Below, piece after piece: positions 13,971 through 61,779 of a stretch of DNA of 64,000 nt. Every line of letters starts with the position of its first letter. Position 1 is the first letter of the stretch. Source of the DNA: Phyllosticta citribraziliensis (Eukaryota); contig NW_027117342.1 of the NCBI RefSeq assembly GCF_038025025.1, positions 62,001 through 126,000 of the forward strand, given 5' to 3'. The translations under genes were made by a program, and so were the position numbers. The notes under the pieces are model-generated. The model was not told the origin of the DNA. It searched no databases and saw only the letters and a program-made list of their open reading frames with translations.

Positions 13971-14064
13971 GGAATCATACTCGCTAGCGGGAATGGCCTT
14001 CTCGCCAGCGGGATTTGCCTTTTCGCTGGCGATCTCGCTAGCAGGAAGCACCCCCGCTCGGCAT
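13971..14064 (+). repeat. Short copy (locus A) of the dispersed CTCGCC(A/G)GCG palindromic repeat family
   Basis: GGAATCATACTCGCTAGCGGG...ATCTCGCTAGCAGGAAGCACCCCCGCTCGGCAT; shares its start with loci C/D and its tail with loci B/C. Confidence 0.85.
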
Positions 14065-14176
14065 GTGCCTCCTTCTTTGAATCGAGGCAAACAAGGGCTT
14101 TTCTGTGTTCCCGGCCGTGTCTACGCCTCAAGGTCGAATTTCTCTGCCAGCGTCACAGCTTTTGCGACGACGACGC

Positions 14177-14372
14177 CTATTTGCCCCAGACCCTGCGGAT
14201 GCGCCGCGCCAGTTGGATGTCTTTTTGCGTCAAGGTGACGCGCTTGGCGTGTATGGCGCAGAGGTTGGCATGTTCCGTCCATTGCACCATGTACATCTCA
14301 GTGGTATCCTGGAGCGCCTCGATCGCCGACGCCTGCCAACGTAGATGTTTTTCCCGGGGCTACTTCGCGCAC
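14177..14372 (-). pseudogene. cenH3: Centromeric histone H3 (CenH3/CENP-A/Cse4)-like fragment, C-terminal histone fold only
   Basis: VREVAPGK/(frameshift)[60 protein letters not shown] (not LRFQ) and the RRIR.VWG end are CenH3-type. Preceded by an intron-like segment 14448-14373 (GTGAGC...CTGAC...TTGCAG). No alphaN/alpha1 found upstream. Not in the ORF track. Confidence 0.9.
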
Positions 14373-14961
14373 CTGCAAGATCTGTCAGTCATGTGGACCG
14401 GGCGAAGGTGGATGCAAAGGAAAGGTGTGTAGAACCTGCGCGGCTCACGTTTGTGCTGACTCCGGGCCCTTGTTCTTGATATTCTCACGCATTTCCGCCT
14501 TGTGCTGTCGATGGGCGAGCGAATACGGGCCGGAGTTGATGAAATGGCTGGGGCGTGCGTGTGTTGGGCGGTCGGTCAAGGTCAGCAGTGGAGTGGGTGG
14601 ATGGAGAAGTGTTTGGGTCTCTGGAGGCAAAGGAGAATAGATGGTGTTGTGGGTGGGGTAAGGTAGGTAACACGCGACGCGCCGGTTTCGCGTCTCGTCG
14701 CGCAGCGCTACCTACCGTGCCACACCCACACCCACAACACCATCCCCCGTCTCGCCCTGTCCATCTCAACCGATAGTCACGACGCTCCGCCTCGTGCGCT
14801 CCTTGGCCCCATATTTGGGATTCTCTCCACACGAGCCGGCTGGCAAACCCTCCCCCGACCCACCACAACACACGCCAGCCGACAAAATGCCCTAAAGCGT
14901 TAGCCAGTATCGATGGCTTCGACTGTGCGGGCGGTCCCGTCTCTTTTGGAGCAGATGGAGA

Positions 14962-15744
14962 ATGGATGAGAGGAGAAGCGTCTTGGTGCGGCAAGAATAT
15001 GCACCTTCCCGTCTGGCTGCCCATCTCCAACTCTCACTTTGCTCCATCCGCTCGCGCCCATCGCGACCCTCGCCCCCGCGAAGCCAGAAGTGGAAGAAAG
15101 GTCGTGTCGTGTCCCCCAGGCCCGTCGCAAATGTCTCTCTTGCTGACCTCGTTGATGCTTGTAGACACTACCTCCAGACAACGCCGAAACTTGCGATGCA
15201 TCCTCCACCAACCTGTCATGACGACGTCAACCCGGCGGTCTTGACGAGCTTGCTACAGGACGTTACCAAAGCAAGAGCCCGCGTGCGCCAGGCCCGTCAG
15301 CAGCACGACACCACCGAAGGTTTGATCAGCTCCACCACCCAAGACCTCATCAAGGCGAAGGACACAGCTGCTGCAACCGACAAGGAGGCAACCAACCTCC
15401 AAAAGGCTCAGGTCGAGGTTGAAAGGATCGCCCAGCAATCGGCGGCCATCGAGGCTCTGCGCCAGATCGCCGCGCACAACAAACTGGAGCTCGACGGCGT
15501 GGCAGAAGCCGTCCGCACAGCCAACGACGACGTCAGAGTCAAGAGCCTCGCCAAGACGGAGGCTGAAGCGCACCTGGAGGAGCAGAAGCTCGTTCTTCGC
15601 CAGGAAATGCAGCATCTCCAGCAGAAAGAGGAGACCGTTTCCAGGGTCGCCTCGATAGACCATCTGCAGACTCTAGCAAGCGCCCTCGGACAATACCTAG
15701 AACATGAGAGAGGAGGACCGCCCCAGAAGAGGTCGAGGATTTGA
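14962..15744 (+). CDS. Orphan coiled-coil protein (260 aa) with C-terminal NLS-like PPQKRSRI
   Basis: Long ORF with heptad-like A/E/Q/K/L-rich helical composition; start codon uncertain. Confidence 0.6.
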   Translation: MDERRSVLVRQEYAPSRLAAHLQLSLCSIRSRPSRPSPPRSQKWKKGRVVSPRPVANVSLADLVDACRHYLQTTPKLAMHPPPTCHDDVNPAVLTSLLQDVTKARARVRQARQQHDTTEGLISSTTQDLIKAKDTAAATDKEATNLQKAQVEVERIAQQSAAIEALRQIAAHNKLELDGVAEAVRTANDDVRVKSLAKTEAEAHLEEQKLVLRQEMQHLQQKEETVSRVASIDHLQTLASALGQYLEHERGGPPQKRSRI

Positions 15745-19558: not shown

Positions 19559-21870
19559 GCGACGACGGTAACAGCCAAGGCGATAGTGGGACTGACGACG
19601 GAAATGACGACGGAAATGACGACGGAAATGACGATGGACATGACGACGAGCAACTCTCCGAGGACGGCATCTCTTCGACTCATTCTCACCCGTATCCCAA
19701 GCTCGCCAACCAGCTGGCAGCGTCGAAATGGGGCCTAGGCAGGTCCGTTTTTCTCCAACACTTCGACAGCGCTGCCTACAATTCGCGAACTTTCCTGCGC
19801 CAGCTTGTGTCCTGGGTAGAACATGGCTCGCTGGAAATGGATGAAATTCACCGGCAGATTCAAGCTACTTGGCACCATGTCTTCAAATGGCCCCCAAACC
19901 ACCCGTTCAGCCTAAAGATTCTCACCGTCACATTGGAGCGGCTGCAGGCCCAAGGGCTCGAAACAGACGTGCCGTTGCGAAAGGATAATCGAAAGAGGCC
20001 TACGAAGGGAAGGGCCCTCCAGATAGAGGCGCAAGGCGACGATGGCCTTGCTGCTCGCAAGTCCGCGCCGCCGGCGACAGAGGCTAGAAGAAACCCAAGC
20101 GCAAGTGCTTTCCGCGTCCAGGTTCAATATTGTGTTCATGAAACTAACTTCTGAGACACGCAGACTCTCCGAAGCAAGTTGGCGCGACCCACAGGTGTCG
20201 ACATCGACAACGACGAGCCCAATGCAGGGAATGCCCGCAAAATGACCCGTACCACTGCTGTTGCGCAGCAGCCTCGAGGTGAAAAACGCAAGCAGGCGGA
20301 CACCGCAATGGATTCGGACCTATTTTCTCCTGGCAAACGCGTAAGAGCAAGAAGCTCCACAACCAACATCATCACATACTCAAAAAAGCCAACGGCTACG
20401 CGGCTGGGGAATGCGGTAAGTAGAAGTGAAAACTCAACATATCTGGATACTCATCTGCTGCCAGCCTCTGTCAAATCCACGTACGCGCACGAGATCCCCA
20501 CCCAAAAGCGATCGTCCTAGAACACCTCAACCGAGACAATCCCCAAGCACTCCTTCTCCCGAAAGAGGCCGCGACGCAACTGACGAAATCCCCGACGAGG
20601 TCCCACACTTGGAGTAAGAGCATACACATCAGAGATGATAGGGAATCTAACGTTGAACAGTAGTAACATCTTGGACGACCAGGCCGAGGAGTCTCAAGAA
20701 ACAGTTTATGCGACCGGTAGTGAGGGCAGCAGGACCACTGAAAAGTCGATGGAAACTGAGTGGACTTCGGCTCCATTCATTCACGATGCTCTCAAAATTT
20801 TTGCCCCAGCCTCCTGCAGAATTCTGGACAGTTCGACCCTCAATCTTGATAGAAGAAGAGACTTTTCTTTTGGAACGCTCACGATTGGCAAACATGACAC
20901 AGAAGCAGCCCTCCCTGTTTTGAAAAACGGGAACCACTGGGGTCTCGCCACTTTGGATTTACAAAGCGGCACGGGCAAGTTTATCGACTTGCGCGACACC
21001 AAAGGCGTTGTTTCCCCAGACGTCAATGATGCTCTGGTGGAACTTGGGACGCGATTGTGCGCGGACAAGGAATGGCGTTTTTCCACGATGCCGACCGCCG
21101 CACCGCAACTCAACTCTGATGACTGCGGTCCTTACACTGTCGCTGCTGCTGCCATGAATCATTGGTATAGCAATGACTCTTTCCCCCTGGAGTCCATCGA
21201 CGCAGCCTTGTGGAAGGTCACTCTGGAAAGGGCGGTAGCGGAGTTCAGGTCGCCTTCAACACAAACCGAGCCATTGGGGCCCCTGGACTATGAACAGACG
21301 CCGCATCAAGAAATGCAGGAATTACTCGCCTCGAATTCGGAAATAGGTTCCCTCGACGATGCGTCCCTCTTTAGACTTCAACAAAAACTGCGGGAGAAGA
21401 TCGAGGACGTGATTCGGGACGTTGTACCGATTCGTTCACAACTGAGCGATGGGGGCTTGAAGAAGATGCTCGACGGCAGCAAGCAAGAGGCCGACAGGTT
21501 GCTGCAAGAGATGGACCAAGAAAAGAGGTTTCGCGAGGATTACGTCGCCATCAATGACGTAGCGAAAGAGCGAGCCAAGGCTTCGCGCCACGCTCTCCAC
21601 AAGGCCAAGCTCGAGAGTTGGGGCACGGCCGAGATTCGCGCCTACGACCAGGCGCTTGCGGGCCTTGCGAGGCGCAAGCAGGAGATTGGAGACGCCATGC
21701 GCGGAATCGAGGCGGCGATCCGGACGCGCGACCACGTTTTGGGGAAAGCTCTGGAGCAGCAATTGGAGGTTGGAAATCAAATTAAGGATTTGAATGCGAA
21801 GGTGGAAGAGGAGCTGGCCGCGCGGAAGAATAAGGTGTGGGAAGATTGGAACAGTGCCATGATGGGATGA
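19444..21870 (+). CDS. Ulp1/SENP-like cysteine protease (peptidase C48), 4 exons, 755 aa: acidic N-terminus, helical domain, disordered linker, C48 domain, coiled coil
   Basis: Exons 19444-20100, 20164-20415, 20465-20613, 20661-21870 join in frame (introns GCAAGT..CTAAC..CAG, GTAAGT..CAG, GTAAGA..CTAAC..CAG). Catalytic His (LPVLKNGNHWGL), Asp (FIDL), oxyanion Gln and Cys (PQLNSDDCGPY) are present. Confidence 0.85.
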
Positions 21871-23542: not shown

Positions 23543-23628
23543 AGCACATCTCGCTAGCAGGAAGCACATCTCGCTGGCGGGAAGCACATCTCACTGGCGG
23601 GAAGCACCCCCGCTCGGCATATGCCTCC
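23543..23628 (+). repeat. Locus B of the dispersed repeat family: 20-bp unit x3 plus conserved tail
   Basis: AGCACATCTCGCT(A/G)GC(A/G)GGA x3, then AGCACCCCCGCTCGGCATATGCCTCC, nearly identical to the tail of locus A. Confidence 0.85.
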
Positions 23629-24419: not shown

Positions 24420-24683
24420 CAAGCAACGCCCTGGTCTCGACTACCTGCAGACCTACACCGCCACTGTTCGCGCAGCCACATTGAAGCTGCTACTTGCGCT
24501 TGCGGCGAATTAAGGATGGTTCATCTTCCAGGACGACGTGATCGCCACGTTGCTGAATGGGAGGATAGACCGCGCGGGTGTCTACATTCACCTGCCCCCT
24601 GGTTTCAAGGAGACCGATGGCCAAGGCGTCGAGCTTGTCGGCGAACTCCCAAAATCGCTGTACGGCCTGAAGCAGGCCCCATG
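24418..24683 (+). mobile_element. Copia reverse transcriptase (RVT_2) fragment, not RIP-mutated, one stop codon
   Basis: HKQRPGLDYLQTYTATVRAATLKLLLALAAN*GWFIFQDDVIATLLNGRIDRAGVYIHLPPGFKETDGQGVELVGELPKSLYGLKQAPW; collinear without gaps with the RIPped RT at ~8755-9020. Confidence 0.93.
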
Positions 24684-27246
24684 GCGCGACAACTCCATCA
24701 CCGCGCGCGCTTCCTCCTACTCAATACAACTATTTTCGCTCCTTCGGACTCGCCACTGTGCCTGGCGTCCATCAGTCCTGCAGGCCTGAGAAACGATCCG
24801 ACAGGTGGCCCAAAATTGTGGCTGACGAGGAAATCTTGTCTGAAGAACCGACAGGAGCCCGTTTGCGACACGACGACTTTTCAGCATAGCGCCACTCTTT
24901 CATGAGCAAGCGGGGAGATTGGAGCAAAAGAAGACGGTAATGGCGAAGGGAACAGTTGAACAGAGGCAAAAAGAGAGGTAAGAGATAAAGTAAAAGCGGT
25001 TGATGGTTGGCCTACTGCTAACCCGTGGCTGTATTTGTCTCTTTGTTTAGGCGTTTACACGTCCCCCGGTGACCCTAAAATCTGACAGCAATTTTGAAGA
25101 CGAAAAAAATCATGGTCATCACCAAGCCCCCCATGCCAGTCCATGCACGACTGGCCGTCTTCGTGGTCAATATATCGTTGAATCGACGGCCGTCTCTGCG
25201 GCTCGGAAGGCTGCTGGTGCTGCTGTGACACCGGTCTCGGCATGTCGATGAGGCGCTCAGGGACCCAGCTGCGCATCTTCGGCAGTGGGTCGTGTGCTAT
25301 CGGGCACAACATGGTATTGTTGGTTCAGACGAGGAGCCGGCGCGGGAAGGCTCCTTACGAAATGACTTTATGGTCGTCTCCGTGGTGAATTTGTGCGCGC
25401 CGAAAGGGCGGGGAGCAGGGACGATGGAACAAGACAGGCGGGAAGGGCTTCGAAAGGAATGACTTGATGGTCTCCACGGTTGATTTGTGCACGCCTCCGG
25501 ACCATGGCCTCCTATCGCCGTCGGGACCTCTGCATCGCTCACCACCCACGCGCCAACCCATTCGTACATTGACCCAGGACTGCTCGCCATCGAACAAAGA
25601 AAGCGAGGTAACTAGGACAACAAGGTTGTGGCGCGCTGGGGCAGAGGACGGAATACAAGCAATTCAAAGAAACTCCACGACACCGACGGTCGACCCAAGT
25701 CTTTTTCGACGTCAGAAATTGCTCCAGAAATTTTCCAACGTCCTTTGAAGCGAGGCTCTAAGGAACGTGATGGCCACCAACGCAGATTCAACGCCACTCT
25801 GAACGGCCTCAATGTCGATCGAATTCTTGGTTGGCTTTCCTTCCCCTTCGTAAAACGGGGCAAGACGTGAGGATACGATAGGCACCGACCATTTCGAGAG
25901 CCTTGGTGACAGGGTTCTTGAGCCGCAGGAGCAAGTTGGGCAGCAAAAGGAGGACGAACAACATGTATGGGGCGCACGAAGAATCGACTCACCATTAAGT
26001 CGACGACCATCTGTACATCGCCCTTGAGGATGCTCGTCGAAGGGAGTTGCTCCGGTTTCGAGTTTCTACCTTCTCCTCATCCTATTTGACTACTGTTCTG
26101 GGCGAGCCTCTCTTTACACTCTTGCAAGGTCGACAGCATACAGGATCGGTCGCGTCATGCACTCTGCTGCGCGGGGGCAGAATGGCAGATCACCCATGTA
26201 CGCGCCTCGGGCGACGGGCCAGCAGCCGGGGACTGGTACTGATGTACTACGCCCTTGCTTGAAGTGGCGCATCTGCACCGGCCGTAGTACAAGGCTTTCT
26301 TGACAATCCCTCTTCAACTGTTGTGCCACTTTATGTCCGTACCAATGAGAAACTGCGAAGAACCAGCCACCTGCTTTTAATCGTTACAGTAAAGACCTCG
26401 ACGCAACTGCATGCACATATTGTCAGACATGCGATGCAGACACAAAGGAGCCACGGTGCTGTTCAAGGAAGCTTGGACATATTTCTAATGCCCCTTGCTT
26501 TGGACAGAAGGGTGGCTTTGAAACGGAGCAGGAAGCACTCCGTCTTGATGGCTGGGAAACAACAAACTCATGCGTGCTCTGAATCCACCTCCCTTCTTCA
26601 ATCTCAATGGCCACCCCATCACGCTCTTCGACTGTCGCTTTTTAGTATTGGCCTGCAAAACTATTCAACATCTCTTTTCGGCAAATTACTAAGACTGGGG
26701 TCGAGGGCGCATCGACCGTCCGCCGCTACCCCATTACGCCCCACCGGAGCTCACCGATGTTGCGTTGAACGCCGCGGCGATTGCAAAGGGCTCAGCTTGC
26801 GGCAAGTCTTCCGCCCTTACAGACGTTGGGACCAAAAGCCTTGCAACAACCCGCCGGCGGGAAACTGACTTCTAGGTGGGAAAAGTCACATCGCCGTCTT
26901 AAGACCTTTAGTATCGACTTCCGTGGAGCCTCTAAAACCCATTAGCTAACGCGTGTTATAGTGCATCCAATGCCGCAAAAGGAAAATCCGCTGCAGTGGT
27001 GGTCGCAACGAATGCAACGGGTCCAGCTCGGCCTGTGCCTGATGCTCCATTGCTGGCGTTTCAGCTTCGTGTCAATTTTGAAGGGTATATCTACTTACTT
27101 GCCTTTCCAATTGGAACGCTTTCTTGCTGACACGGTATGTATGAATATACAGATCAGACAGGTAGAAGTTTCACGCCTCCGGTCCAAATACACACCACCG
27201 CAACGTCGTTCTGCCATTCGCCCTGTTCAATGCCCCTGGCGCTTCG

Positions 27247-31714: not shown

Positions 31715-31942
31715 TCAACCGCCCTTCCAAGGCGGAATCGGAGTGACCGTGGCTATCCCAGGCCGTTGTGGCTGCTGTCCTGACGCCTTCTTCTTCGCCA
31801 AATGGCTCTCCATAATCTTCCTGATGTGGGCGAGCGTCATTTCCTTGCCCTCACCGGCCTTGAGGTTGTTGAGCGTGTAGGGCGGGCCGAGAATCACCGC
31901 ATCGTCAATAACGATGGACTGCTCGTGCCAGCGCACGGGAAG
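31715..31942 (-). pseudogene. LSM12: Fragment of Lsm12 (C-terminal anticodon-binding AD domain, last exon)
   Basis: LPVRWHEQSIVIDDAVILGPPYTLNNLKAGEGKEMTLAHIRKIMESHLAKKK...PIPPWKGG* fits P.RW....IV..D.V.I.PPY....K.......L.H(V/I)RK. Preceded by CTGAC...AAACAG intron end. No N-terminal Lsm domain seen. Confidence 0.8.
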
Positions 31943-32343
31943 GCTGTTTCTCGTCGTCAGTCGCGACGTCCTCTTCCTGGGGGCGGCGTTATGTATCGCG
32001 CCAAAGCCGGCAAGCCAAATCAAGTCCTGCACTGCCTCATCCGTACTGGCTGTTGCTAGTGCTGCGCGTTGGTGCATGCGGTAAGGAACAACATCTGCAG
32101 TAGAAAAGGAGCAGGTCAGCCATATTCGTAAGAATGTGACCAGCTTGGAATGGTAGACGTGAGGGATACAAACCTGGCGGATTCACAACACCCAATGGCA
32201 GCACCATTACTCACTTCTCCAGACCTCTCCCAAAACTGGAATCCTTGCCCAAGATGCGCATTGGATCCAACCCACGGGAGTGGCGCGCCAACGCCAATTT
32301 TCCCCGGGTCACGATGGTCTCCATTTCGACCTGCTTTTGCGTC

Positions 32344-32710
32344 GTCTCGTCCACCTCGACGCGCACCGTCTCAGAAGCCGCCGTGCTGCTGGCCTCGCCG
32401 TTGACAGGATCTCGTGGGCGTCTCGTTCTCGATGCGCACCGTCAGAAGCCGCCGTGTTGCTGGCCTCGCCGTTGACAGGCTTGCCGCTGAACTCGGACGC
32501 CGCAGGGGTCTCGTCCACCTCGACGCGCACCACCTCAGAAGCTGTCGTGTTGCTGGCCTCGCTGTTGATAGGCTCACCGCTGGTCTCGGACGCCGTGGGC
32601 GTCTCGTCCACCTCGACGCACACCGCCTCAGAAGCCGCCGTGTTGCTGGCCTCGCCGTTGACAGGCTCACCGCTAGGCTTGGATCCCGCGGGGGTCTCGT
32701 TCTCGACGGA
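32344..32710 (-). repeat. 93-bp (31-aa) tandem coding repeat, about 4 copies, acidic (VDETPAASEFSGKPVNGEASNTAASE)
   Basis: Units start at 32508, 32601 and 32694 on + (93-bp spacing), with degenerate copies at 32344 and 32420. Confidence 0.9.
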
Positions 32711-32725
32711 GCAGTGCAACGCGCC

Positions 32726-34254: not shown

Positions 34255-34462
34255 GCGAAGCTCTGCTCAATGTTCTCGAGCGCTCCGCCCCGCCTTCATC
34301 GTCTCCTCCTTGCCAGAGGAAGCTCTGCCACTGCCGAACCTTGTCGACGTACATGTGGCCAAGGGTGCGGGATATCTCGGGTGCTATCGACCGGAGGTTT
34401 GAACGCATCCGGATTGTGCGACCAGTGGCGAGCTCTTTGATGACGTGGAAGAGTGCGACGAG
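34255..34462 (-). pseudogene. KAP120: Fragment of importin-11/Kap120 (N-terminal HEAT region), frameshifted
   Basis: LVALFHVIKELATGRTIRMRSNLRSIAPEISRTLGHMYVDKVRQWQSFLWQGGDDEGGA/(frameshift)ALENIEQS; GGDDEGGA and KEL.T.R are recalled hallmarks of fungal importin-11. Confidence 0.8.
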
Positions 34463-40929: not shown

Positions 40930-43560
40930 CGCTTATGGTGGCACGTATTCCAAGTGATTGCGAAACATGATGCTGGTTGGCTTCAGCCGTGGAGGTGGTA
41001 GTGGTGGTGGTGAGGTGGTGGTGAGGTGGAGGTGGTGGTGGTGGTGGCTGCAGTCGCGTCCACGGCAGTTGGTGTTGAGGCAGGCACCGGACGCCGGCGG
41101 CCCGGCGGCAGAGGCGTGCAGTCACGTGTCAGCGAGTCAGCTTGAGCGCTGACAAAGCATCCGTCGGGTTGCAGTGCCACCTCACCGCCACAACACCACA
41201 ACCACAACCACGATGCACAACACCCACGCGGCGACGCTATGGCGTTCTAGTGGCTCCGTATGGCCTGGGTGCTGTCAGATGGCGTCTTTCACCTTTTTTT
41301 GAAGTTGGTGGAGGAGCACACTCTATCAAACAACCCTGCCGTCACACCGCGTGTGAAATTCGAGGCAGCAAGTCGGTTCGCCAGCACGAGCGCGTCCTCT
41401 CCTTCTCTGTCTTCTTTTGCTGACTGTTTTCAAGGCCACCGCTGCAGCTCATCAATCGCCGACACCGGACATCGCCGCCGTGACCCATGGCCTCCTCTTT
41501 GCCCGTGCCGAATTCGCCGCTCTCAAAACCGACCACAAGTCTTCCGGCCACCTCGAAACCAGTTGACTCTGAAGAGCTTCAAGCAGGCGACATATTAACG
41601 AAGTGTAGGTACAGCTTCATGGCGACCGAGGTACATTGGGAGCCTGTAATACCAAAGACGCCGTGGACCGCGACACGTTGGCCTGCGCATCATCTACAGG
41701 AAGCCTGGGGGCTTCGGGCTTCCTGCGGGCCAAGGTTGCGGACATTTGCGGCATCAACCATGAGGGCGGTACCGGGTCCGTAAGTTGGAGTTGCAACTGA
41801 GTGGGAAGCGCAAAGAAGATGTACACTGTGACTTGATGCGCGCCAACGAAATGTCTTCCTTGCCCATGGCATCCCGCCGCTCTTGGTGGAGCCCTCGTTG
41901 GTATATTTTGTGGGCACACTCGCTCTGTCCTGCACTGCCCCATGGGTTCCTCGACGTCTCTGCGCGGTTTGATACCTCGGCACGTAGGTACGTACGCATG
42001 TTGTCTCTCACACCTCCCCGTTGACTCCGATTCAGAATTGCCGGCAAGATCACTCGTCGCTCTTGGTGTCCCTGCAAGGTGCATCCATGGGTGAGGGGGC
42101 GACAGGACTGATTCGGCGTTACGTCGAGTCCTGGTGTTTTGTGGCGGGCCTTCCGACGGGTCCTCATCCCATCTCACTCGGGCTCGCTATCGAGGGCAGA
42201 AGATGGGAAAGCAGATGGCCCAAATCAGTGCGTCCACCCGAGTGTTGACTCTTCCCACGTCTTGATACATGAAACCACTTGGTCGGCCGCCTTTTTGCTA
42301 CAGCAAGATCTTATCAAGCATTTGTTAAAATCATCAGGGTGTGAAAAGGACACAGGCCCCTCCCCCCAAACTCCTCGAGATCTTCCACCCCGTCTGGCTC
42401 ACCCATCGCCTGCAGACCCCGCCCTCAACAACGCACGCGACCTACCATCTGCCGAGTACTGCTACCATCTGTTCCAGCCAGGAGAGCATGCCAAGATGCA
42501 TGCCTTCCAAGGTTTGTGGCCGAAGCGATTGCACTTACGCATGTAGAAGTTGATTGCCGGGGAAAATTTAATATGATGGAGCTAGAGTGGTTTCATAATG
42601 GTATTTTGAAGTGTTCCTATTTGGAGTCATTCTTTGCCGCCGCCAGAAGTGGGCCGACGCGCATGACAGCGTAAACCCTTCTGCCGTCCCACAGCCAGCC
42701 AGCGCCCAAAGATAAAGAAGAAAACATGGCCAAGTATCCATCCCGTGCGTTGTAAGTACGCGCCGCTAGGAAGCGGATCGGCACTTTCTACAGTTCCTAC
42801 CCTCTTAAAAAGAGCTGGACGGCGAACAAGCCGAGCAGCCAACTGGAAAGAAAGACCACGCTGCTAAAGGAACCGAGCTTGCTGAGCCGCGGCCTGTTAG
42901 GCAATCCTCCTTATTTCCTAGGAAGCTTTCCTCTGTGGATGCTCGCAACCTGTACCGCAGATCCTGGCCTTGTTCCCATCCCCTGTGCATGGTTCTTGCC
43001 CGGTCCCTCGCGCCCACCAACACCGACCGAGTATCCCACAGGAAGCTGGCAACTTTGTGCTATCTCCATCTCGCATGGCGGAGTTTGGCTCGGAAGCAGG
43101 CTGCACCATTCCTTTCCTTCTCCTTCTTCCCTTTTGTACCTCTTGCACCCCGCATTTCACGCAAGTTCTGTCCGCCAAGGTGACGCAAGCTTCGGGAGAA
43201 GCTGTGTGGGCGGGCAGGTTGGAGTTGGAGCCTCGAAGATCGGTCTTGGTTGACGAGTTGTGCAGGTAGTGCCGGCGTTGGCTGCATACTTTTAATGGGG
43301 CATTGACGCAATCTGTCGCCCTGTTCTGGTCAGCCCAAGGCTTGGAGCGAGAGAAGCCATGTGTGCGGGTTCAGCTGAACATGACTCGCGCACGAGCAAG
43401 AGAGAATCGAAGGTGTAGGTGCAGGTCAGGCAGGCGGCGGGGTCGGGCGGCGGGGCTGCGTGATTGTCCGCCGGCGGGACGACCCGCCGGCGGGTTTCCT
43501 CTCTGCCTTCAGGTTTACCACCACCACCATCCAACCCTCACCATCATCGTCATCATCACC

Positions 43561-44729
43561 ATGTCTCGCTCGCGCCAGCGCCGCGCCGCCGAGCGCCACG
43601 TCGCCGCCGGCACCCCCGGTGCCCAAGCCCACCTCGTAAGACTGTTCTCCATCCCTCAATGTATCTCCCTCTAACACGTACGTGATGTGTAGGCCGCCCT
43701 CAACCAGCGGGAGGTTGCCCGCAACCAGCAACGGCGGGCGCGCTCCCAGCCCTAGTAGGTCATCAGACCATGTCGTATTCTACCACATCATTCTGACGGA
43801 GAACACCAGTGCTGCTGCTGCTGCTGCACCCCCTGCTGGTCCTCCTCCGGGCCCCAAGTAAGTCCACGTCGTTCTCCTATCTGTCCACGAGTAGTTGCTG
43901 ATTGAGATAGCCTCCCTCCGGCTCCCCCTGCTGGTCCTCCCCCGGCCGCCATGTAAGTTCACGTCCTCCTGTCTGTCCGCGAATAGTTGCTGATTGAGAT
44001 AGCCTCCCTCTGGCTCCCCCCGCCGGTCCTCCCCCGGCCGCCATGTAAGCTCAAATGCTCCTGTTTCCCCATCGATATAGGTGTTGATTGAGACAGTCAC
44101 CCGGCCTTAGCTCCCGAGGCTGCCGCCCTCCCGGCCGCCAAGTGAGTTCAATTTCTCCTGCCTGCCTGTTTCCCGTGGATAGGTGCTAACGATAGTAGCG
44201 TTGTCCCGCCCGCCGCCGCCGCCAACGACGACGACGACAAGTAAGCTGCAGTGCATTCTCCATCCACAAGTTAGATGCTGATGAAACTAGCGCGGTCCCG
44301 CCCGCCGGCGCCGACGACGACGATGACGCCATGGATGAGGAGGGCGAGGGCGAGGAGTAAGCTGCAGTGCATTCTCCATTCACAATTTAGATGCTGATGA
44401 GAACAGTGTTGTCCCGGGCGCCGCCCCCGCCGACGGCGACGAGGACATGGAGCTGGACGACGAGAAGTAAGCTGCAGTTCTTTCTCCATTCACAAGTCAG
44501 ATGCTGATGGAACTAGCGCGGTCCCGGGCGCCGCCGCCGCCGCCGCCGCTGTCGCCGACGAGGACGACGAGGAGGAGAAGGAAGACGACGAGGACGACGA
44601 CATGTAAGCTACAAGATCACTCTCCATTTGCGTATGGTATATACTAACGAGAATAGCGCTCCGGGCGCTCGCGCGCCCTTTTTCCATATGACGCTGCGCC
44701 CCCTGGCCCGCCGCAACTACAAGCTGTAG
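43561..44729 (+). CDS. 11-exon micro-exon gene, 213 aa: basic N-terminus, Pro/Ala repeats, acidic repeats, basic C-terminal motif
   Basis: Exons 43561-43635, 43693-43754, 43810-43857, 43911-43952, 44003-44044, 44097-44141, 44199-44240, 44291-44356, 44407-44466, 44517-44603, 44657-44729 total 642 nt and read ATG to TAG without a stop. All ten introns are GT-AG, 50-57 nt, with CT(A/G)A(C/T)-type branch sites; nine are phase 2. Confidence 0.88.
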
Positions 44730-45822
44730 TTGTTTTAAGAAATTTGTAAAAATAAAAATGGATTTCTCCCTCTCCTCTCCATCTCTGTCCGTCCGTCGAC
44801 TCTTCTCTCCGCATTGCATTTTCTCCCCCTGTGAAGTGGTAGACTGTCGACTTGCCGTTCGCTATTTGCCTCCCTTCCTCGCTCGTTTTATTGATCATTC
44901 ATAGGGAGGGGGGCATGCATGCGGTGTCGCGGCGAGCGGAGTGGCTGCTGTACGGGCAAGAAGATGGATGGTGCCGGAGACGCTGCACTCACTCACTCTC
45001 CATCGGCCCTGCACTCATTCGACAACAAGGAATTTTGCGAGGCGAGAATGCCTCCCGCAGAGAATTTTGACCGCGCACCTTCTCCCCCCAACGACCACGC
45101 TGCGGGCCACAAGCCGAGCGCGGACCCCGAGACGGCCGTGGATTTCCGGTCAAGACGCTGACGAGGAGGCACCCCCGCGAACAAACCCACCCGATGTCGT
45201 TGACCTATTCGCAGACACTCCCGAGGAGGACCTCAAGAAGGGCGGACCACGCTGTGGCGTAGCAGCTGGCTGGGCCACGATCAACCTTTAGTTCCCCAAC
45301 GCCGACGGCCGCCCTAGCTAGCTCCGCAAACCTAAACAAGGAACCTACCTGCTTGCCGCTCCCAACGTCCAGACGGACTCTCGAAATGGCTCGAGGTCGC
45401 GGTATACTGGGAGCCAGGGGCATGGGCGTGGGGCGTGGCATCAGCAGCGCAAACACAAACCGCGGCGGCGCAAACAGCGGCGGTGCAAGGAGCTCACTGG
45501 GAAAACTCAGGGGAAAATTCAACGCCAGGCGTGACGCAAACGCAAACGCCTCCGCAACGGGCAAGGGAAAGCTCAAGCGCCCGCGACTCGCCAGCTCGAA
45601 TTTTGCAGGTAGCGGCGCGGAGGATATTGGGTGGTGATGGTTGGTATATCCGGTTCACTTGCCGCCGGCGGCGGCTGACATGCGCAGAAACGAGAGCTTG
45701 GCCGGCCCTTTTACTGCTGTTTCGCTCTGGGCGTGCGTGTAGAGAGTAGGATTCCTCAGATTCTCAACTCACGCAAGCCCGGGCAAATTCCAAAAAGTGG
45801 CCAGTGAAGTTAATTTTTGATG

Positions 45823-46056
45823 AAGCTCGCTGCTGCTCCTCGACCCGATCCGTCCAACTACAACCCGGCGGCGGACAGACAGGGTTCGTGCTGAGGAGCC
45901 TGTAGTCCTCGTCATTATTCCGGTCCGGGAGCTTGCTGTCCAGATCTTTGATGAAGCTCTCCTTCTACTCAATACTTCGTCCTTGCGTCATCTGTGGCGG
46001 CGGTCCTACTCCTCATGACCAGTTGGCCGAACTGCGAAAGGGGTTGCGACATTTTA
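45823..46056 (+). pseudogene. Fragment of a Ded1/Dbp1-like DEAD-box RNA helicase (motif Ia to GG), several frameshifts
   Basis: KLAAAPRPDPSNYNPAADR/VRAEEPVVLVIIPVRELAVQIFDEA/YSILRPCVICGGGPTPHDQLAELRKG/CDIL; PTRELAxQI, GG and GCDIL are recognisable. Confidence 0.88.
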
Positions 46057-46329
46057 GGACCATTTGTCACCAAGTTCGCAAGCTTGTTAAGAGGGCTGAG
46101 TAAAATCCATACTTCATCAACTCAGTAAGCTAAACTGTGGCATGTATCCAGACAGCAAGAACAGGTTCCTCGCCCGAGGTTGTGTAATTTTTGACCACAC
46201 CAACGCTGACACAACTACACTCGTACACGCCCTGTCTAACACCAGGAGGGCTCCTTTACCACATCAAGTTCCTCAATCAATTGATTCTCCCAATTGTCCC
46301 CTCTGGCCAGCTGTATTCTCTGTTCTGGA

Positions 46330-46383
46330 GTTTCCGGTAGATGTTTCCGGTAGATGTTTCCGGTAGATGTTTCCGGTAGATGT
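46330..46383 (+). repeat. 13-bp tandem repeat x4 (GTTTCCGGTAGAT)
   Basis: Directly visible, perfect copies. Confidence 0.95.
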
Positions 46384-47024
46384 CCTCTCCCTTGGGTGGA
46401 TCAATTGCCCAAGGATCCACCTTTTCGTTGTGGCTGGAGATGGCCGCATTGAGGGAAAAGCTGGAGCAGTGCCTTTTGGGCGCAGGAGTGGTGTGTACGG
46501 AAGCGGTCTCGCGGTTGGCGTTGTTCCAGGGCGAGAAAGGAGGGAAAGGAGCGCATTGAGAGAAGGGAATTGTGTACCAGACGGAAGCGCTCTCGGTGTT
46601 GGTGTCGTTCCAGGGCGGGAAGGGGGGAAGGGAGCGTATCTAGAGACGGGCACTTCTACTGGTTCCGGTTACCCTCGTCTTTCTGCCTGCCGCCGCTGTT
46701 CGGCTTCCTGGTCGAGTTGTTGGCGGGCAAATTCCTCGTCTCCACTGCTGCCACCGCTACTAACTGGGCCCGGCTGTTCTCACTATTGGCGTTGTTGCAG
46801 GGCGGGAAAGGAGGGAAAGGAGCGAAGTCAGGGACAACCTGGCACCGCTGTTCGGCTTCCTGGTCGAGTTATTGTTGGCGGGCAAACTCCTCGTCTCCGC
46901 TGCTGCCGCCGCTGCTGACTGGGCCCAGGCTGTCGAAGAGTCTTCCACTGAAATGAAGGACGTGGTCTTGATCATGTGCTCCCGGCATGTTCAAGAGGGT
47001 GAGGAGAACAGCCCTGCTGTCGCA

Positions 47025-47303
47025 AAGCCCACCAGGCCGACCAATTTTTGACGGGGGGCCCTTGTGCGTGAACACGAAAAAGATGTGGGAATAGAACATG
47101 CCGGCCATGCATGCGCGTCGAGGCTGCGGGGGTCGACGTTTGAGAGGCGCGGACCGGGTGTCGTGAAGCCCGCCAGGCTGACCGATTTTCGACGGGGGAC
47201 CCTTGTGAGGGAACACGAAAAAGATGTGGGAATAGAACATGCCGACCATGCGGGCGCGTCGAGGCTGCGGGGGTCGACGTTGGAGAGGCGCGGGCCGGGC
47301 GTT
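47025..47303. repeat. 141-bp tandem duplication x2
   Basis: GAACACGAAAAAGATGTGGGAATAGAACATGCCG at 47070 and 47211. Confidence 0.95.
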
Positions 47304-48451
47304 GTTGAGGTGGCGTTATGCTGCTGTTCTTGCGGATTTTGGTGTTGCGGGAGCTGCTCTCTGCTCTCATAGGAGGGCACGCCGCGGAGTGTCTCGCCGG
47401 TGTAAGGATCACCTTCATCGGCAGGAGACGTGGTGGACGTTTGGGCGCGTGGTGTGGCCGTAGTGTTGGTGCTTTTGCCGACGCGATTGCTGCGGTTTGC
47501 TGGCTCGTCTGCCTTTCTCGCGCTCCGTGCCCTGGCGGTTCAGTGACGAGCGGCTGGTGCTCTGGCGCAGCAGTTTCGGGGCGCTGGGCTCTTCGCTCGT
47601 GTCCTCGAAGGTCTTCAAGGACGGGGAGACGAGTCTTCGCAAGCTGAACGGTTGGAAAGGAATACCCGTTGGCGGCGCGGATGACCACTTGAACCCCTTT
47701 CTGAGAGCGGTCACTAATTAGCGTCACAGGAGGGGGCTCAGATTGAGGTCGAGATGACTTACCAAGAAATCAGCCGTGAGACAGCTGGCCTTGTTGTGGC
47801 CCTTGTACAGCTCCCAGGTCGGCTCATCCTAGAGCCAGGCTTGTTCCACGAGTCCAGATACGACTTCACGCGCCACAGGCATCACCGTCTTCGAACTCGT
47901 AGTCGCGGCAGGCAGCGCTCTTCTTGGCCGCCTTCTTCGCTGTCGGGACCGTTGTCGTCTCTTCTTTTTCTGTGCTGGAGAAGACACGCTACAACGATCG
48001 ACTGTAAGGACGTGGTTGAGGGTGGGGTTTCCCTCTTCTGGTGGCGTGTTTCAAGAGCCTCGAGGAGATGAGCAGCGTGCATGGGCACGACTCGATCCGC
48101 TACGGGCCCTGTATGTCATCAGAAGCGTGCCCAAAGAAATTCGGCAGAAGGGAAAAGCGGGTTGCTGACATACCTAGAACTCATACGCTACGGCAAGCAA
48201 GCTAGAGGGCACCGGGTGAGTTGCAGAGGGAGAGAGAGAGGTGGAGAGAGAGGTAGGGAGGGAGGTGGAGTGAGAGAGGAAAGGTTGAGCCTAAAGGTAA
48301 ACACGGCGAGGATGGGCATCTTTGTAGGCAGTGGCAGGGAAACACGCCAGGCAGTCGGCAAGGTGAGGTCAAGAGGGAGCGAGAGGGAGAGAGAGAGTAA
48401 AAGTAGGAGGTGAGGAGGGCAGCGGCCCGGCGGCGCTTACATAACATCAAT

Positions 48452-48694
48452 TCTCGCCAGCGGGAATCATACTCGCCAGCGGGTGACTCAGCCGCTCGCT
48501 CATGTGACCGGCATACTCGCCGGCGAGTATGGCTTTCTGGCTCACGTGACCGGCATACTCGCCGGCGGGTATGGCCATACTCGCTAGCGGGTGACTCAGC
48601 CGCTCGCTCATGTGACCGGCATACTCGCCAGCGGGAATCATACTCGCCGGCGGGATTGGCTTTCCCGCTGGCGAGTATGATGCCTGCTAGCGGG
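48452..48694 (+). repeat. Locus D of the dispersed palindromic modular repeat
   Basis: Begins TCTCGCCAGCGGGAATCATACTCGCCAGCGGGTGACTCAGC like locus C; ends in a hairpin with a 19-bp stem (one mismatch). Confidence 0.97.
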
Positions 48695-49653
48695 TTACCC
48701 CATTTGGGTAGCAACAACTTACCTAGAGCACAAATGGTGTTTCTTGCCCTAGTCTCTTTCCTACCTCATCTTTTTTCTCTTCCCTTCAAACTCTCTCCTT
48801 ACCGTTCCAGGCACAAGAAACAGCACGTCTGGTGGCGGCGCACGCCATCGCAGAAATGGGCGGTTTTAGCTAGCAAGACCACTAACGCGCAGCAGGAGAG
48901 GGAACTAGAATTGAGGGACGCGACCTCATATATAGAACACCTGTGTTATGAGTGCGCATTTAACATGTCTACAGCCGGGAGATGGATATCTGAGTGCCTG
49001 TAGAAACATGATATGAGCATCTTGTCCCGCACTAACCCCACCCAATCTGCACCACGCTCTCTAGCCAAGCACGTCTCACACAAGGCCCATCAAAGGCACC
49101 CACTACGGGCTTTATGGCGGAGGAGAACTGAAGCCGGAGAGTCCAGAAAGGGCGGTAAGAGCAGCATGAGGGCAGAACTTTACTCGTATTCTACACGTCG
49201 TCAGCGGATGTGCGACCGAATCCGCGTGACCCACTTGGTGGAGCGCGAAGGCGGGTTTTTAGTATCAAACTGCTTGATGTCGTTAGCTGGTGGGTCACTC
49301 ATGGACAAAGGGCGGAAAGTGGACAATGCGACAACAAGATGCCGTCCATGTGGGCGTTCGAGGGGGACGCCTGGGCTGGGTTCCCGTCGGGCCCGTCCTC
49401 CCTTGCCGCATTCTCTCGTCCACAGCTGCAACACCACGACGACGCCAACGAGACAACGACCGCACTCTACAATTCTCGCCACACCTGGACCAGTCGAGAG
49501 AGGCAATGGCAAGCCTCGTCGTCCTTCGTTGTTGCTGGCGATGCCCCAGAAGCCGCCGCCTCGAGCTCAGCCGCTTGCCGTCGAGTGTTGTGACTTGGCG
49601 AGTACGCTCGGTCAACTGACTTTGGAGGAGGGTGGAGCGAAGGAATGGAGAGA

Positions 49654-52700: not shown

Positions 52701-53650
52701 TAGGACAAGGGCGATTCGCATTCATGTCACCAGAATATCCCAAAGCTCTTGTGTTGACGACGACTTGGACACGCCAGCCATTCTCAACAAGTACGGCCTG
52801 AAGACAGGCATGGCGCAGAGTCATCTTGGGGACAGTGTCGTACATGGACGCGTCGGAGCCTGGAGTGGCCTCTTCAACCAGCGAGCGGAGACTGTATTGA
52901 CGACAAGTCCACGCGTTTCTGCACTCTCGTCTTGTAAAGGCCCGCACCCCATGCTTGCCTGCCAGTCACGGCGGCAAATTGACATTTCGCGCCATCGTGA
53001 ACCCACTCCGCTGCCGAGCGCTGCCAGGCTGCTTTGTCACACTCCGTCCTAGCGACAGAGCGACGTCTCATCGCTAAAATTTTACCAAAGCTCGTTTTGC
53101 GTCAATTCAACCGTCACCCGCCGGCCTGGCTGTGAGAGGCACCTCTTGTCATTCAGCCGACTGCTCCGTCGTGCCATCAAGACGGCCAGCATAGTCTCAA
53201 GCAAGCTCCCCAATTCCTACCCGCATGGGATGATACTGTTCGCGCCCTTAACAGCACGGCTGTTAATATGAAGCGAGTATCTAGTAGGACTAGAGGAGAT
53301 ATCCCTACTAAGCCAGCAGACGCGATGCACGTCGGACGCCAACTAAAAGAGTTCCGGTCAGTCCATATATATTACTCTTCACTTAATCCGTCTACACGAT
53401 AGTCACTGACGTCACAAAAGCTTGCCAAAACGGCCGAGTGCCGCCTTCCCATGCTCTTATCTCTAAGGGCGACGACAACACAAGTACGCGGTTGTAGAAT
53501 CACAGGCGCTGTGGAGCTTGCACAGCCAATTTGGAGCTACCATCGTCGAGTGAGATTAGGCACATCGTCTTTCACATAGACACCCCTGCTCTCTGCTCTA
53601 CCGTCAGGAGACCTTGCCGATATTGTTTCTCCGACCGCGCTGCATCCATC

Positions 53651-54160
53651 AATAACCACCACGCGTTTGAGCATCAAGTGAAACTTTGTCGAACTGTTGC
53701 TTGCTGGAAGGTTGAAGACAACATTGCCCAACTCTTCCTACTTGCCGACGTTCTTTCTCCGGTCGCGCTGCCTCAACAACCACCACGTGTTTGAGCATCA
53801 AGTGAAACTTTGTCGAACTGTTGCTCGCTGGAAGGTTGAGGACAACATTGATCTCTTCCTACTTGCCGACGTTCTTTCTCCGGTCGCGCTGCCTCAACAA
53901 CCACCACGCGTTTGAGCATCAAGTGAAACTTTATCGAACTGTTGCTTGCTGGAAGGTTGAGGACAACTCCAGTTGCGCCATCAACAACCACGACACATTT
54001 GAGCATCAACCGAAACTTTGTCGAACTGTTACTTGCTGGAAGGCTGAGGACAACTCCAGTTGCGCCATCAACAACCACGACACATTTAAGCATCAGGCGA
54101 AACTTTGTCGAACTGTTACTTGCTAGAAGGCTGAAGACAACATTACCTATCTCTTCCTAC
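53651..54160 (+). repeat. Five-copy tandem repeat (72-bp core, units of 124, 121, 87 and 87 bp)
   Basis: Core AACAACCACCACGCGTTTGAGCATCAAGTGAAACTTTGTCGAACTGTTGCTTGCTGGAAGGTTGAGGACAAC at 53651, 53775, 53896, 53983, 54070. Confidence 0.95.
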
Positions 54161-59162: not shown

Positions 59163-59333
59163 CAACCAACATCAGCGAATCAAAATCAGTCGGGCAGCCT
59201 GAAGGCTTCTATAGGGGAGCGTCCTGGGCCTCCACCAACACCAGTAAATCAAAATCAGTTGGGCAGCTCGAAGGCTTCCACAGGGGAGCGTCCCGGGGCT
59301 CCACCAATACCAGCAAATTAAAATCAGTCAGGC
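59163..59333 (+). repeat. 69-bp tandem repeat, about 2.4 copies
   Basis: AAT(C/T)AAAATCAGT at 59178, 59247, 59316. Confidence 0.9.
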
Positions 59334-60785
59334 ACCCTTAACCTCCTCTCCCGACTAACCGTGATCTCGGCCAACCCTCAAACAAATTCAAGTGGCACCC
59401 ACTACCATGATGGCTTTTCTCATAGACGGCTATATTTATAGCATGACATAGTGTTATAGTTAGTATAATTACTCGCTCTCCCTACCTTAATAAATCACTA
59501 GCAGCATTAGTAGGACTACCTGCTTTACTTCCTTATCCTCATCTTTGATTAAATCTTAGCTGACGGCGTCTTCTTTATTATTATGTGCAGCAAGATGAGC
59601 GGTAGAGATAGGAAGAGAAGGGCTAAGTTGAAGTGCACGGAGAAGAAGAAGGTAGGGTAGTTTATTTTATCTCTCGTCCGCGCTCTTCTCCGTTAACCAA
59701 CACTGATTATGACGTTGTCTCTTAATCCATCCACGGTCCATCATCCCTTCTCCGTCCTCCAGCCAACGCACGAGCCGTGTTTTGTGGGTCATCGAGAAGC
59801 CGAATGCTAGCAAGCAGCGCATCGCCGTGGCAGATCGTGCGCCCACAACCGACTAATCGAATGACCTGTCAAGATCCCAGAGGCAGGTCAAGGCATCATC
59901 TGAGGTTGAGTGGATTTTATGTTCTCTAGATGCATGACGATGTTGCTTTCCGCCTCCCGTCCCTCAACCTACACCACCGCTAACAGGACATCCCGGCTCC
60001 TCGCGTCCTTGTGCCATTTTCCAATTCCTTCATGTCATCGAAATGAAATTTGAGGTAGCGGCCTATTGAAGCTCGTAGGCGTTTATCGACGACGTACGGC
60101 GAGGCGAGGCTCGTACAGCTCGTGAGCTTGCCGGTGAATTGTCCGCTGTCGAGGCTCATCGAGGACTCAAAGCGACCCCCAGCATTCTCTCCTCGCCAGT
60201 GAAACACACAGGGCCGGCTGCCGCCCCTGGTAGCTTGTCAGAACGGCGAGGAGGTTCGCGATCTTGGGCTGATGACCCGGCACAGAAACAGAGGGGGGGA
60301 CAGGAGGGAAGAAGCTGAAGTGAACATGTATATGGCTGGAATTAGACAATGCCCGGTTTCTGTCGTGTCGCGTCGCATCGTCCGATCTGCCTCGCTAGGG
60401 TTAGGTGCGGACATAAGACTTGCAACCTACAAATCAGTATAAACGAGAGAGGGTGAGGTTGAGGGAGGCGTAATTCTCTGGAAATACCCCTGCTGACGAC
60501 GAAACGAGGACCTTTGAGGCAACTTGAGCGATACCGATGACGCGATGAGCCCGCGGAGGGGATATCCTGCGCGTAGTAGTCAGTCAGTTTTGAGAAGCTG
60601 TTAACGGAGCCTTGCGGCAAAACAACCTTGAGGCCATGATGGCTGTTGGGAATGGTCGCCCATCTCACCGTGCCCAAGATGTCCTTGATGTATGCCGAGG
60701 AAAATGATGTGGGCCAGAAGGCAATCCAGGACAACAGCGCGGAAACGTCGGAGTGTAGCTTGGAGGGCCAAGATTGGTGGATTTG

Positions 60786-61141
60786 AGGACAGCGGCCAGA
60801 CGGCGAGGTGATTCCTTTGATGCAGACTTCGTACAGTTCGGAAGAACGCACGAAGAGAGGAGCGCCTCTTTGAGGCTTAGAGGAGAGCGGCCGGGCGGCG
60901 AGGTGTTTCCTTCAACGTAGAGTCCGGCCTGTCGGGTATCGGTCAGTACAGCTCTGAAGGAGAGGACGGCGGGAGGAGTACTTGTCTGAGAAGCATCTCC
61001 CATGGAAGAGCCAAGAGATGGACGGCTTCGAATGCAGAGGACAGCGGCCAAGCGGTGAGGTGTTTCTTCCAAGCGTACCAGTCAGTACAGCTCTGAAGGA
61101 GTGAAGCGGCGGGAGGAGTACTTCTCTGAGCAAGCATCTCC
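60786..61141. repeat. Degenerate ~140-bp modular duplication
   Basis: GTCAGTACAGCTCTGAAGGAG at 60942 and 61081; GAGGA(C/G)AGCGGCC..GCGG.GAGGTG three times. Confidence 0.8.
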
Positions 61142-61460
61142 AACGGACGAGTGCAGTGAGCGAGCGGATGGATGGCGGATAAGGGGAGCAGGGGCGGGCG
61201 ATGAGGGTGAAGCTGGCGAGGCGGCGGGAGGATTGCAGCGATCGATGATGGATGAAGTGGACGAGAGTGGAGCGAGAGAGGGTGTCACTACATGTACCTT
61301 ACCTTACCTTCAGTAGCAGTGCGTGACCTGCCGACGCGACCTCACCTCAGGTCCCTGAGAGACTCCAGGTCGGCCCGCAACGCGAAATCACGTGACACCG
61401 CGACCGTCTGAAGGAACCGAACGCGATGGGACCGGACCGGACCCGCTAGTTATCTCAGCA

Positions 61461-61779
61461 GGTGACTCAGCCGCTCGCTCACGTGACCGCCATACTCGCC
61501 GGCGGGAATGGCAAACTCGCCGGCGAGTATGGCTTTCTCGCTCACGTGACCGGCATACTCGCCAGCGGGAATGGCAAACTCGCCAGCGGGAATGGCCATA
61601 CTCGCCAGCGGGAATTATACTCGCCAGCGGGTGACTCAGCCACTCGCTCACGTGACCGCCATACTCGCCGGCGGGAATGGCAAACTCGCCGGCGAGTATG
61701 GCTTTCTCGCTCACGTGACCGGCATACTCGCCAGCGGGAATGGCATACTCGCCAGCGGGAATGGCCATACTCGCCAGCG
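61461..61779 (+). repeat. Locus E of the dispersed palindromic modular repeat (higher-order ~170-bp unit x2)
   Basis: Same modules as loci C/D; GGTGACTCAGCC at 61461 and 61631. Confidence 0.97.

Follow-up and report, generated by a model that had tools for sequence, protein, structure and literature searches.

What are the clusters of short palindromic units that recur, with a common core, along a 64,000-nucleotide (nt) stretch of the genome of Phyllosticta citribraziliensis, an endophytic fungus of citrus? This stretch, hereafter the window, spans positions 62,001–126,000 of contig C5 in a 31.35-Mb genome of 22 contigs (designated ‘C’ and a number), and holds five arrays, A to E (Table 1). 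The original prediction, made from the letters alone, saw in them either a cis-acting element specific to this compartment of the genome or a non-autonomous mobile unit. Our analysis favours the former. The arrays are best read as clusters of putative protein-binding sites, which would act as enhancer or upstream activating sequence (UAS) platforms private to a lineage of accessory mini-chromosomes; we hold this reading, which is drawn from sequence, with somewhat more than even confidence.

All arrays belong to one minisatellite family of head-to-tail units of 19–23 bp, 219 of which were parsed in 19 array segments of the genome. The commonest unit sequence is CTCGC-YR-GCG-RG (Y, pyrimidine; R, purine), with the core CGC-YR-GCG. 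Within the window the core pattern matches 30 times on the plus strand and once on the minus strand, every time in arrays A–E (core-match spans: A, 13980–14045; B, 23550–23581; C, 35206–35827; D, 48453–48675; E, 61495–61759). The other shared elements described in the original prediction are likewise present: the 20-bp palindrome (positions 35287, 35414, 35717 and 48512), the E-box, TCACGTGA (13 copies in the window, 12 within C, D and E and one at 61388), TGACTCA (9 copies within C, D and E and 2 outside), a tail common to A, B and C (positions 14044, 23600 and 35826) and an identical start of 25 bases in C and D. In a stricter parse, E-box units make up 45 of 216 units and keep the register of the palindromic units; TGACTCA lies in the spacer of some units, with 19 sites across arrays, and RTCACRTG and GGAATG occur at 42 and 43 array sites, respectively. 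We take the E-box and TGACTCA to be targets of bHLH and bZIP factors, RTCACRTG to be a consensus of the centromere DNA element I (CDEI) type and GGAATG to be TEA/AbaA-like. The E-box is present in 7 of 17 arrays and absent from the other 10. Array length ranges from 73 to 641 bp and unit order is variable. Repeat-induced point mutation (RIP) has left only light traces at the arrays, as the original prediction had noted. Array C folds much more strongly than shuffled controls (z −9.7) because of its palindromes; with the fold so explained and no Rfam match in the window, we dropped structured RNA as a candidate.

The family is confined to a small part of the genome. Searched with a 15-mer core pattern, the genome yields 140 matches against 1 for the reversed control. 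Of the 100 matches that were listed, 95 fall in three regions at chromosome ends, the 40 unlisted ones equalling the number expected for mirror copies on C13. A two-unit pattern has 53 sites against 0 for its control; all 50 listed sites fall in the same regions, and the remainder again equals the number expected for C13 mirror copies. The arrays are thus confined to two compartments rich in orphan genes: on C4 a unit of 252 kb, and an end of 149 kb that C5 and C13 have in common and within which the window lies. Exact-pattern scans of metagenome and viral contigs gave 0 matches. Two further contigs, C17 and C18, were considered as extra compartments, and 13 sampled 10-kb stretches plus the contig starts yielded neither an array nor any similarity to compartment frames.

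Conservation within the units follows the motif that each unit carries. Of 171 palindromic units, 165 and 159 retain the one and the other outer CpG, whereas only 48 retain the central CpG, the centre taking all four YR states (CA 63, CG 48, TG 35 and TA 22). In E-box units the corresponding outer CpG is intact in only 25 of 45, and TCACGTGAC is exact in 36 of 45. The difference persists after identical units are collapsed per array (outer CpG intact in 89 of 95 palindromic units versus 11 of 26 E-box units). Because the retained positions differ by unit type, constraint appears to track the motif, a pattern that fits putative binding sites and to which shared descent or mutation bias may also contribute; as the units are related by descent, the counts are not independent events.

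This pattern bears on the simplest alternative, that the arrays are a neutral GC-rich minisatellite which folds back, recombines readily and is carried along by duplications of gene cassettes, its motifs being by-products. The single source of 19–23 bp repeats, the higher-order repeats of 127 and 169 bp, the strong fold of array C, the many other tandem repeats in the compartments and the 18–121 bp of flank that some array pairs have in common all fit such an origin. Neutrality does not, however, predict that conservation would shift between the CGC half-site and the E-box by unit type, that 14 of 17 arrays would sit at switches in strand composition (below), or that none of the listed two-unit sites would lie in the other 31 Mb, and we regard it as distinctly unlikely.

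Array position was analysed for 17 arrays, 11 on C5/C13 (the duplicated unit counted once gives 10, plus 1 on C13 past the breakpoint) and 6 on C4 (between 2,244,655 and 2,409,080). In 300-bp flanks, the right side is more C-rich than the left in 16 of 17 arrays, and a full switch from a G-rich left to a C-rich right flank is seen in 14 of 17, where 3.6 would be expected; in 5,000 random placements within the compartments, 14 was never reached. With 500-bp flanks the signal is weaker (10 of 17). The sequence that precedes core genes is C-rich (at 5 of 5 exact starts and at 28 of 37 approximate ones), so the switch would mark divergent promoters, and the arrays would occupy divergent-promoter positions. 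Four arrays (C5:20.5 kb; C4:2,245, 2,394 and 2,408 kb) lie upstream of Ulp1-like genes.

Transcription was examined by aligning four sequencing runs to window positions 33,300–49,600; two of them, X1 and X2, are taken as RNA from their spliced joints and not from run records. In each, spliced joints (GT..AG and CT..AC) surround array C on the two strands. The array is thus bordered on each side by spliced transcripts from two studies, with antisense joints also present on its right; contigs from both runs also cover the right flank of array D. Cover by X2 over arrays C and D themselves is low, and we draw no conclusion from it. A run labelled as another organism, X6, has depth in 30 of 30 bins and contigs on array C, its long pieces carrying about 5–13 differences per 100 letters, indicating that a relative carries the region.

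Confinement, promoter-type position (14 of 17) and motif-tracking conservation together support the predicted compartment-specific cis-acting element, and the enhancer or UAS reading suggests how it could have arisen. An ancestral unit of about 21 bp, with the symmetric site CGC-YR-GCG read by a hypothetical dimeric factor, would have been amplified through slippage and unequal exchange. Substitutions would then have yielded the E-box (TCACGTGAC) and TGACTCA units, possible recruiters of host bHLH and bZIP activators. Genes for bHLH (10 matches) and bZIP (12 matches) proteins all lie outside the compartments, so these two motifs would be read by host factors. The arrays would have spread within the compartments only, via segmental duplication and ectopic exchange, and their likely effect would be to sustain transcription of the orphan, Ulp1-like and chromosome-function genes within chromatin prone, in their absence, to be silenced.

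Several observations weigh against this proposal. Three of the 17 arrays have no two-sided switch at 300 bp; array A is nearly without skew on either side, and array B overlaps open frames. Numerous genes of the compartments are without an array, 145 kb of C4 is free of arrays throughout, and several arrays precede broken genes. Neither of the two intact CenH3/Scm3 gene pairs described below has an adjacent array. Contigs from X1 also extend over array sequence, with 30 of 30 bins covered, so this run may include DNA. Finally, the conservation pattern could in part be imitated by gene conversion or by mutation bias that depends on sequence context.

Spacing also speaks to two other proposed functions. 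The predicted intervals of about 13 kb are real for arrays C–D (13,247 bp) and D–E (13,009 bp), but they do not reflect a general period, and we rejected a strict 13-kb repeat. Gaps range from 4.7 to 50.6 kb over the whole C5/C13 unit, where they are compatible with random placement (coefficient of variation (CV) 0.92, p 0.54), and from 0.8 to 145 kb on C4, where the arrays are clustered (CV 1.9). After an AT-rich RIP block is taken out, the C5/C13 gaps (4.7–16.1 kb) are evener than random (CV 0.40, p 0.002, post hoc). Remnants of Ulp1-like and CenH3-like genes recur along the C5/C13 unit, and we therefore propose that this evenness would come from old duplication of array-plus-gene cassettes. 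Co-orientation similarly holds within the window and not beyond it: 3 of the 19 parsed segments lie on the minus strand of their contig, the array found only on C13 is opposite to the window arrays once C13 is flipped onto C5, and polarity reverses near C5:139,930 and at C4:2,394,677.

One function that even spacing could serve is anti-silencing, in the manner of the VANC proteins of VANDAL transposons, with a compartment factor binding the tandem motifs and stripping methylation or heterochromatin over many kilobases. The GC-rich DNA of the compartments, with core-like RIP indices and a CpG observed/expected ratio of 0.97, is in line with this account. The arrays on C4 are clustered, however, and roughly 98 kb of array-free, GC-rich DNA there is equally RIP-free; the skew signal is local and promoter-like, and no transposase or VANC-like protein was recognized among the frames scanned. 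We consider anti-silencing platforms improbable.

Replication origins or origin-enhancers like the homologous regions (hrs) of baculoviruses, or a small non-autonomous transposon, would likewise explain interspersed imperfect palindromes, a repeated unit length and even spacing outside the RIP block. Yet five Pfam scans of the frames found no viral gene above the cut-off, and the viral and metagenome contigs were without a match. The array edges showed no terminal inverted repeat (TIR), target-site duplication (TSD) or common flanks; their longest direct repeats are 4–7 bp with no common length, and array length and unit order vary. On the same grounds we rejected a miniature inverted-repeat element, and with it the mobile unit of the original prediction. 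We give the origin or transposon explanation very little credence.

The enhancer or UAS reading ties the arrays to the compartments that carry them, and these resemble small chromosomes. The C5 end (1–148,770) is an inverted copy, without RIP, of C13:1,209,415–1,358,182; the alignment covers the two ends (99.97% identity over 10.6 kb and 99.99% over 18.2 kb), between which the array matches mirror each other. At its C5 junction the duplication interrupts the core IML1 frame after about 745 residues, which points to a recent translocation or a misjoin. At the end of C13, beyond a telomere tract, 2.2 kb of GC-rich sequence (1,358,243–1,360,433) matched none of the sequences compared with it and is possibly an assembly artefact.

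On C4, the GC-rich compartment is flanked by an inverted, RIP-mutated 160-bp satellite (83% identity over 1,815 bp), which a genome search found only at compartment ends and in the interior of the C4 AT-rich block. Outside these satellites lie (CCCTAA)10 at 2,235,030 and a degenerate (TTAGGG)19 at 2,487,353, 252,437 bp apart, as if the unit had its own telomeric ends, although telomere-associated elements can leave similar tracts. No opposing telomere trace was found on the core side of the C4 unit, and the C5/C13 unit has a telomeric end of this kind on one side only. In another assembly of the species, a contig of 253,010 bp carries P0096 and P0098 (an identical Scm3–Myb protein and a close Ulp1-like ortholog), its match in length to the C4 unit being one of contig sizes and not of a karyotype. 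Homologues in P. citriasiana lie on contigs of 236,132 and 240,513 bp, and most of those in P. capitalensis on contigs of 1.5–3.2 Mb. Because of the fossil telomeres, the inverted end satellite and the two proteins on the 253,010-bp contig, the C4 unit is probably a mini-chromosome fused to the end of a core chromosome, and we infer that the compartments are of accessory status. The inverted 2-kb repeats also raised the idea of a giant TIR transposon, which we dropped since the telomere traces lie outside them and no transposase was found among the frames scanned. An AT-rich block of 40–47 kb occurs in each compartment; the available text on Zymoseptoria describes such blocks as unreliable centromere marks (PMC4589918). 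Amid the block on C4 is a large inverted repeat (2,350,586–2,370,989; about 98% identity over 5 kb) that contains a piece of the end satellite.

Compartment genes were surveyed among 1,960 frames of at least 80 amino acids, the scan covering the long ones and 298 of the best-scoring short ones; some 1,400 short frames, together with a few that span locus borders, fell outside it. A Pfam cut-off was passed by 1 of 77 compartment frames, as against 15 of 46 adjacent core frames, and the compartments are gene-poor and orphan-rich relative to the core. Both nevertheless appear from their sequences to carry an extra CenH3, an Scm3 with tandem Myb repeats, Brr6-like genes and Ulp1-like genes. Of the Ulp1-like proteases, six are long frames in which the catalytic motif is present, and four or more further copies are diverged or broken; two Brr6-like genes and one chromodomain complete the recognized set.

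Two intact CenH3 paralogues, at C4:2,327 kb and C5:129 kb, are additional to the core CenH3 (C9:1,545 kb). Their identities to core CenH3 and to H3 are 68% and 68% for the C4 copy and 63% and 58% for the C5 copy. Both copies display three sequence features that serve as CenH3 criteria (available text of bioRxiv 10.64898/2026.09.15.751753), namely a longer loop 1, an F-to-W change and a divergent N-terminal tail; they also share an intron position with core CenH3, and by such sequence criteria they are of CenH3 type. Their proportions of differences are 0.22–0.28 at nonsynonymous sites (pN) versus 0.65 at synonymous sites (pS), and a Protein Data Bank search with the C4 histone exon placed Cnp1/Cse4 as the top three matches, H3 being narrowly behind. 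Broken CenH3-like copies adjoin array A and an array at C5:5,160.

Each intact paralogue adjoins a gene for an Scm3 domain with two Myb repeats, whereas the core Scm3 (C2:2,381 kb) has one Myb repeat in the portion examined. The Myb regions of the compartment proteins are basic (net charge +13 and +6, versus −4 for a core segment of equal length), and tandem Myb repeats are the only sequence-specific DNA-binding-type domains found in the compartments among the frames scanned. Of all features of the region, these pairs may be the most surprising. The protein P0095 has a lead-level ESM Atlas match (0.80) to an Scm3/Myb cluster, and an isolated 170-bp piece at C11:1,325,730–1,325,900 (L108) is 89% identical to the C5 Scm3 paralogue.

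These genes invite a different account of the arrays, as loading or partition sites at which compartment Scm3 binds CGC-YR-GCG through its tandem Myb repeats, a Cbf1-like host protein binds the E-box and compartment CenH3 is deposited, giving the unit its own segregation or drive. Two intact CenH3–Scm3 pairs, basic Myb regions and the 42 RTCACRTG sites are in keeping with it, as is the yeast precedent, in the available part of PMC13017519, of Cbf1 binding CDEI and of GCG-containing motifs of about 20 bp required at some centromeres. The arrays, however, are GC-rich, many and dispersed, lack an AT-rich core and hold promoter-like positions; the E-box is in only 7 of 17 of them, and a Myb repeat is found in core Scm3 too. 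Extra active centromeres would presumably be unstable on the core chromosomes that now hold the units, and Zymoseptoria centromeres are described as having no consensus motif in the available part of PMC4589918. Loading sites are therefore unlikely in our estimation. So is the wider proposal that selfish Phyllosticta mini-chromosomes of about 250 kb carry a private segregation kit (a diverged CenH3, Scm3 with two basic Myb repeats, Brr6-like and many Ulp1-like proteins) for which the arrays would be the DNA address, their centromere or partition identity being set by sequence and not by the epigenetic system of the host.

Table 1 Arrays and other features. Positions are in the window unless a contig is named.
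Feature	Position	Strand	Description
Array A	13971–14058	+	3–4 palindromic-core units, then shared tail; no skew switch; directly 3′ of broken CenH3-like gene
Array B	23543–23615	+	3 units of 20 bp, then shared tail; overlaps unannotated open frames
Array C	35200–35840	+	About 30 units, 127-bp higher-order repeat; 15 cores, 7 CACGTG, 5 TGACTCA
Array D	48434–48700	+	12 units; left flank G-rich, right flank pyrimidine-rich; TTACATAA variant at 5′ edge
Array E	61456–61790	+	15 units, 169-bp higher-order repeat; skew changes from G to C
Spliced transcript left of array C	33326–34560	−	CT..AC joints 33516/33589 and 34496/34556
Broken CenH3-like histone gene	14178–14485	−	Disrupted by a stop and a frameshift; over about 56 amino acids, the last exon shares 68% identity with core CenH3 and 60% with H3
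Ulp1-like protease gene P0001	38938–40929	−	H-D-Q-C motif aligned with five C4 paralogues; covered by RNA-type contigs
Diverged Ulp1-like paralogue	20584–21867	+	Profile E value 2.6e-9
Frame with anticodon-binding domain (AD, PF09793)	31715–32182	−	
CenH3 and Scm3/two-Myb gene pairs	C4:2,326,869–2,328,345 (L060:6869–8345); C5:127,910–129,550 (L038)		
AT-rich RIP block, right end	1–10500		Block of 40 kb (C5:32.2–72.5 kb) that splits the compartment

The compartment as a whole is prone to local duplication. Tandem repeats of 87–158 bp, unrelated to the arrays, occupy window positions 32343–33233, 43829–44582, 47018–47299 and 53608–54141. A reverse transcriptase fragment (RVT_2; 24514–24786) lies in GC-rich DNA without heavy RIP.

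Beside the end satellite of both compartments is a gene family (L031:2864–4804 and L076:2496–4535) with a PH-like N terminus and a helical C terminus; it has 62 representatives, the named ones all from Botryosphaeriales. For the terminal gene P0002, the PH-like fold covers residues 1–189 with a middling match (Z 7.7, rmsd 2.9, 114 aligned), and ESM Atlas returned unnamed ascomycete clusters. We rejected P0002 as a DNA-binding factor or recombinase, as 26 relatives had no Pfam family above the cut-off and there was no Foldseek match at an E value of 0.001, in searches that did not take the C-terminal domain alone. The scanned compartment frames contained no transposase domain and no DUF3435 match; a genome search for DUF3435 was blank, though its control queries were blank too, and a DEPDC5 C-terminal search was likewise blank together with its controls. 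A small family of related frames lies at C4:2,279,256, 2,281,980 and 2,324,423 and at C13:1,201,943; three of them have an HPD motif within a J-domain-like helix pattern, and there was no Pfam match. A nonribosomal peptide synthetase cluster (C13:1,150,000–1,200,000), which we presume to be of the epipolythiodioxopiperazine type, directly adjoins the compartment without an AT-rich border and includes a dipeptidase, O-methyltransferases, P450s, ABC and MFS transporters and an oxidoreductase.

The wider bearing of these arrays is on how fungal accessory chromosomes stay expressed and transmitted while being non-essential. The system pairs a named cis element with candidates for the trans factors and allows a natural comparison of fused and free units. 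Even if only the conservative reading is true, minisatellite evolution would have produced a regulatory code specific to a chromosome; the CenH3 and Scm3 paralogues, for their part, offer a testable case of a chromosome supplying its own centromere proteins, and the interest of the region comes from such a mini-chromosome as much as from the arrays. We found no report of a chromosome bearing these genes in the literature searched, which included Phyllosticta papers and few of the subscription papers; the main text of two Phyllosticta genome papers does not contain the words ‘accessory’, ‘dispensable’ or ‘Ulp1’.

Several known systems share parts of this picture. Baculovirus hrs are dispersed clusters of imperfect palindromes in enhancer-like positions, set among a compact gene set. 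The arrays resemble them in dispersal, palindromes and position, but they lie in linear fungal chromatin with spliced genes and, no viral genes being recognized, outside any viral context. Starship giant transposons span a comparable size range and carry orphan cargo. The compartments are similar in both respects, but no DUF3435 captain was seen (the search controls being silent), the C4 ends consist of an inverted satellite with telomere traces and the terminal gene is PH-like. For partition sites, the STB locus of the 2-micron plasmid is a further comparison, and some plant B chromosomes encode variants of kinetochore genes.

Like fungal accessory chromosomes, for example those of Zymoseptoria tritici (PMC4589918), and plant B chromosomes, for which B-specific repeats have been described (PMC9508019, PMC9846793), the compartments are small, gene-poor and orphan-rich. 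They differ in combining CenH3 and Scm3 paralogues with a private motif array, neither of which is described for a fungal accessory chromosome in the available text of these works. Yeast point and proto-point centromeres, as presented in the available text, pair CDEI with Cbf1 or use GCG-containing motifs called CAMs (PMC13017519, PMC5371998), and the present system likewise has a CDEI-type E-box, short GCG motifs and CenH3 with Scm3. We rejected the arrays as centromeres of this kind, because they have no AT-rich CDEII-like core and number 11 and 6 per unit, all GC-rich and with promoter-like flanks, instead of one per chromosome. VANC targets in Arabidopsis VANDAL elements are, in the available text (PMC5735166), short motifs tandemly amplified in non-coding DNA and specific to one family of selfish elements, and the arrays have this same organization. 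Here, however, no transposase was found among the frames scanned, and the carrier is a chromosome-like unit of 150–250 kb with telomere traces, whose arrays have the host-type E-box and TGACTCA built in.

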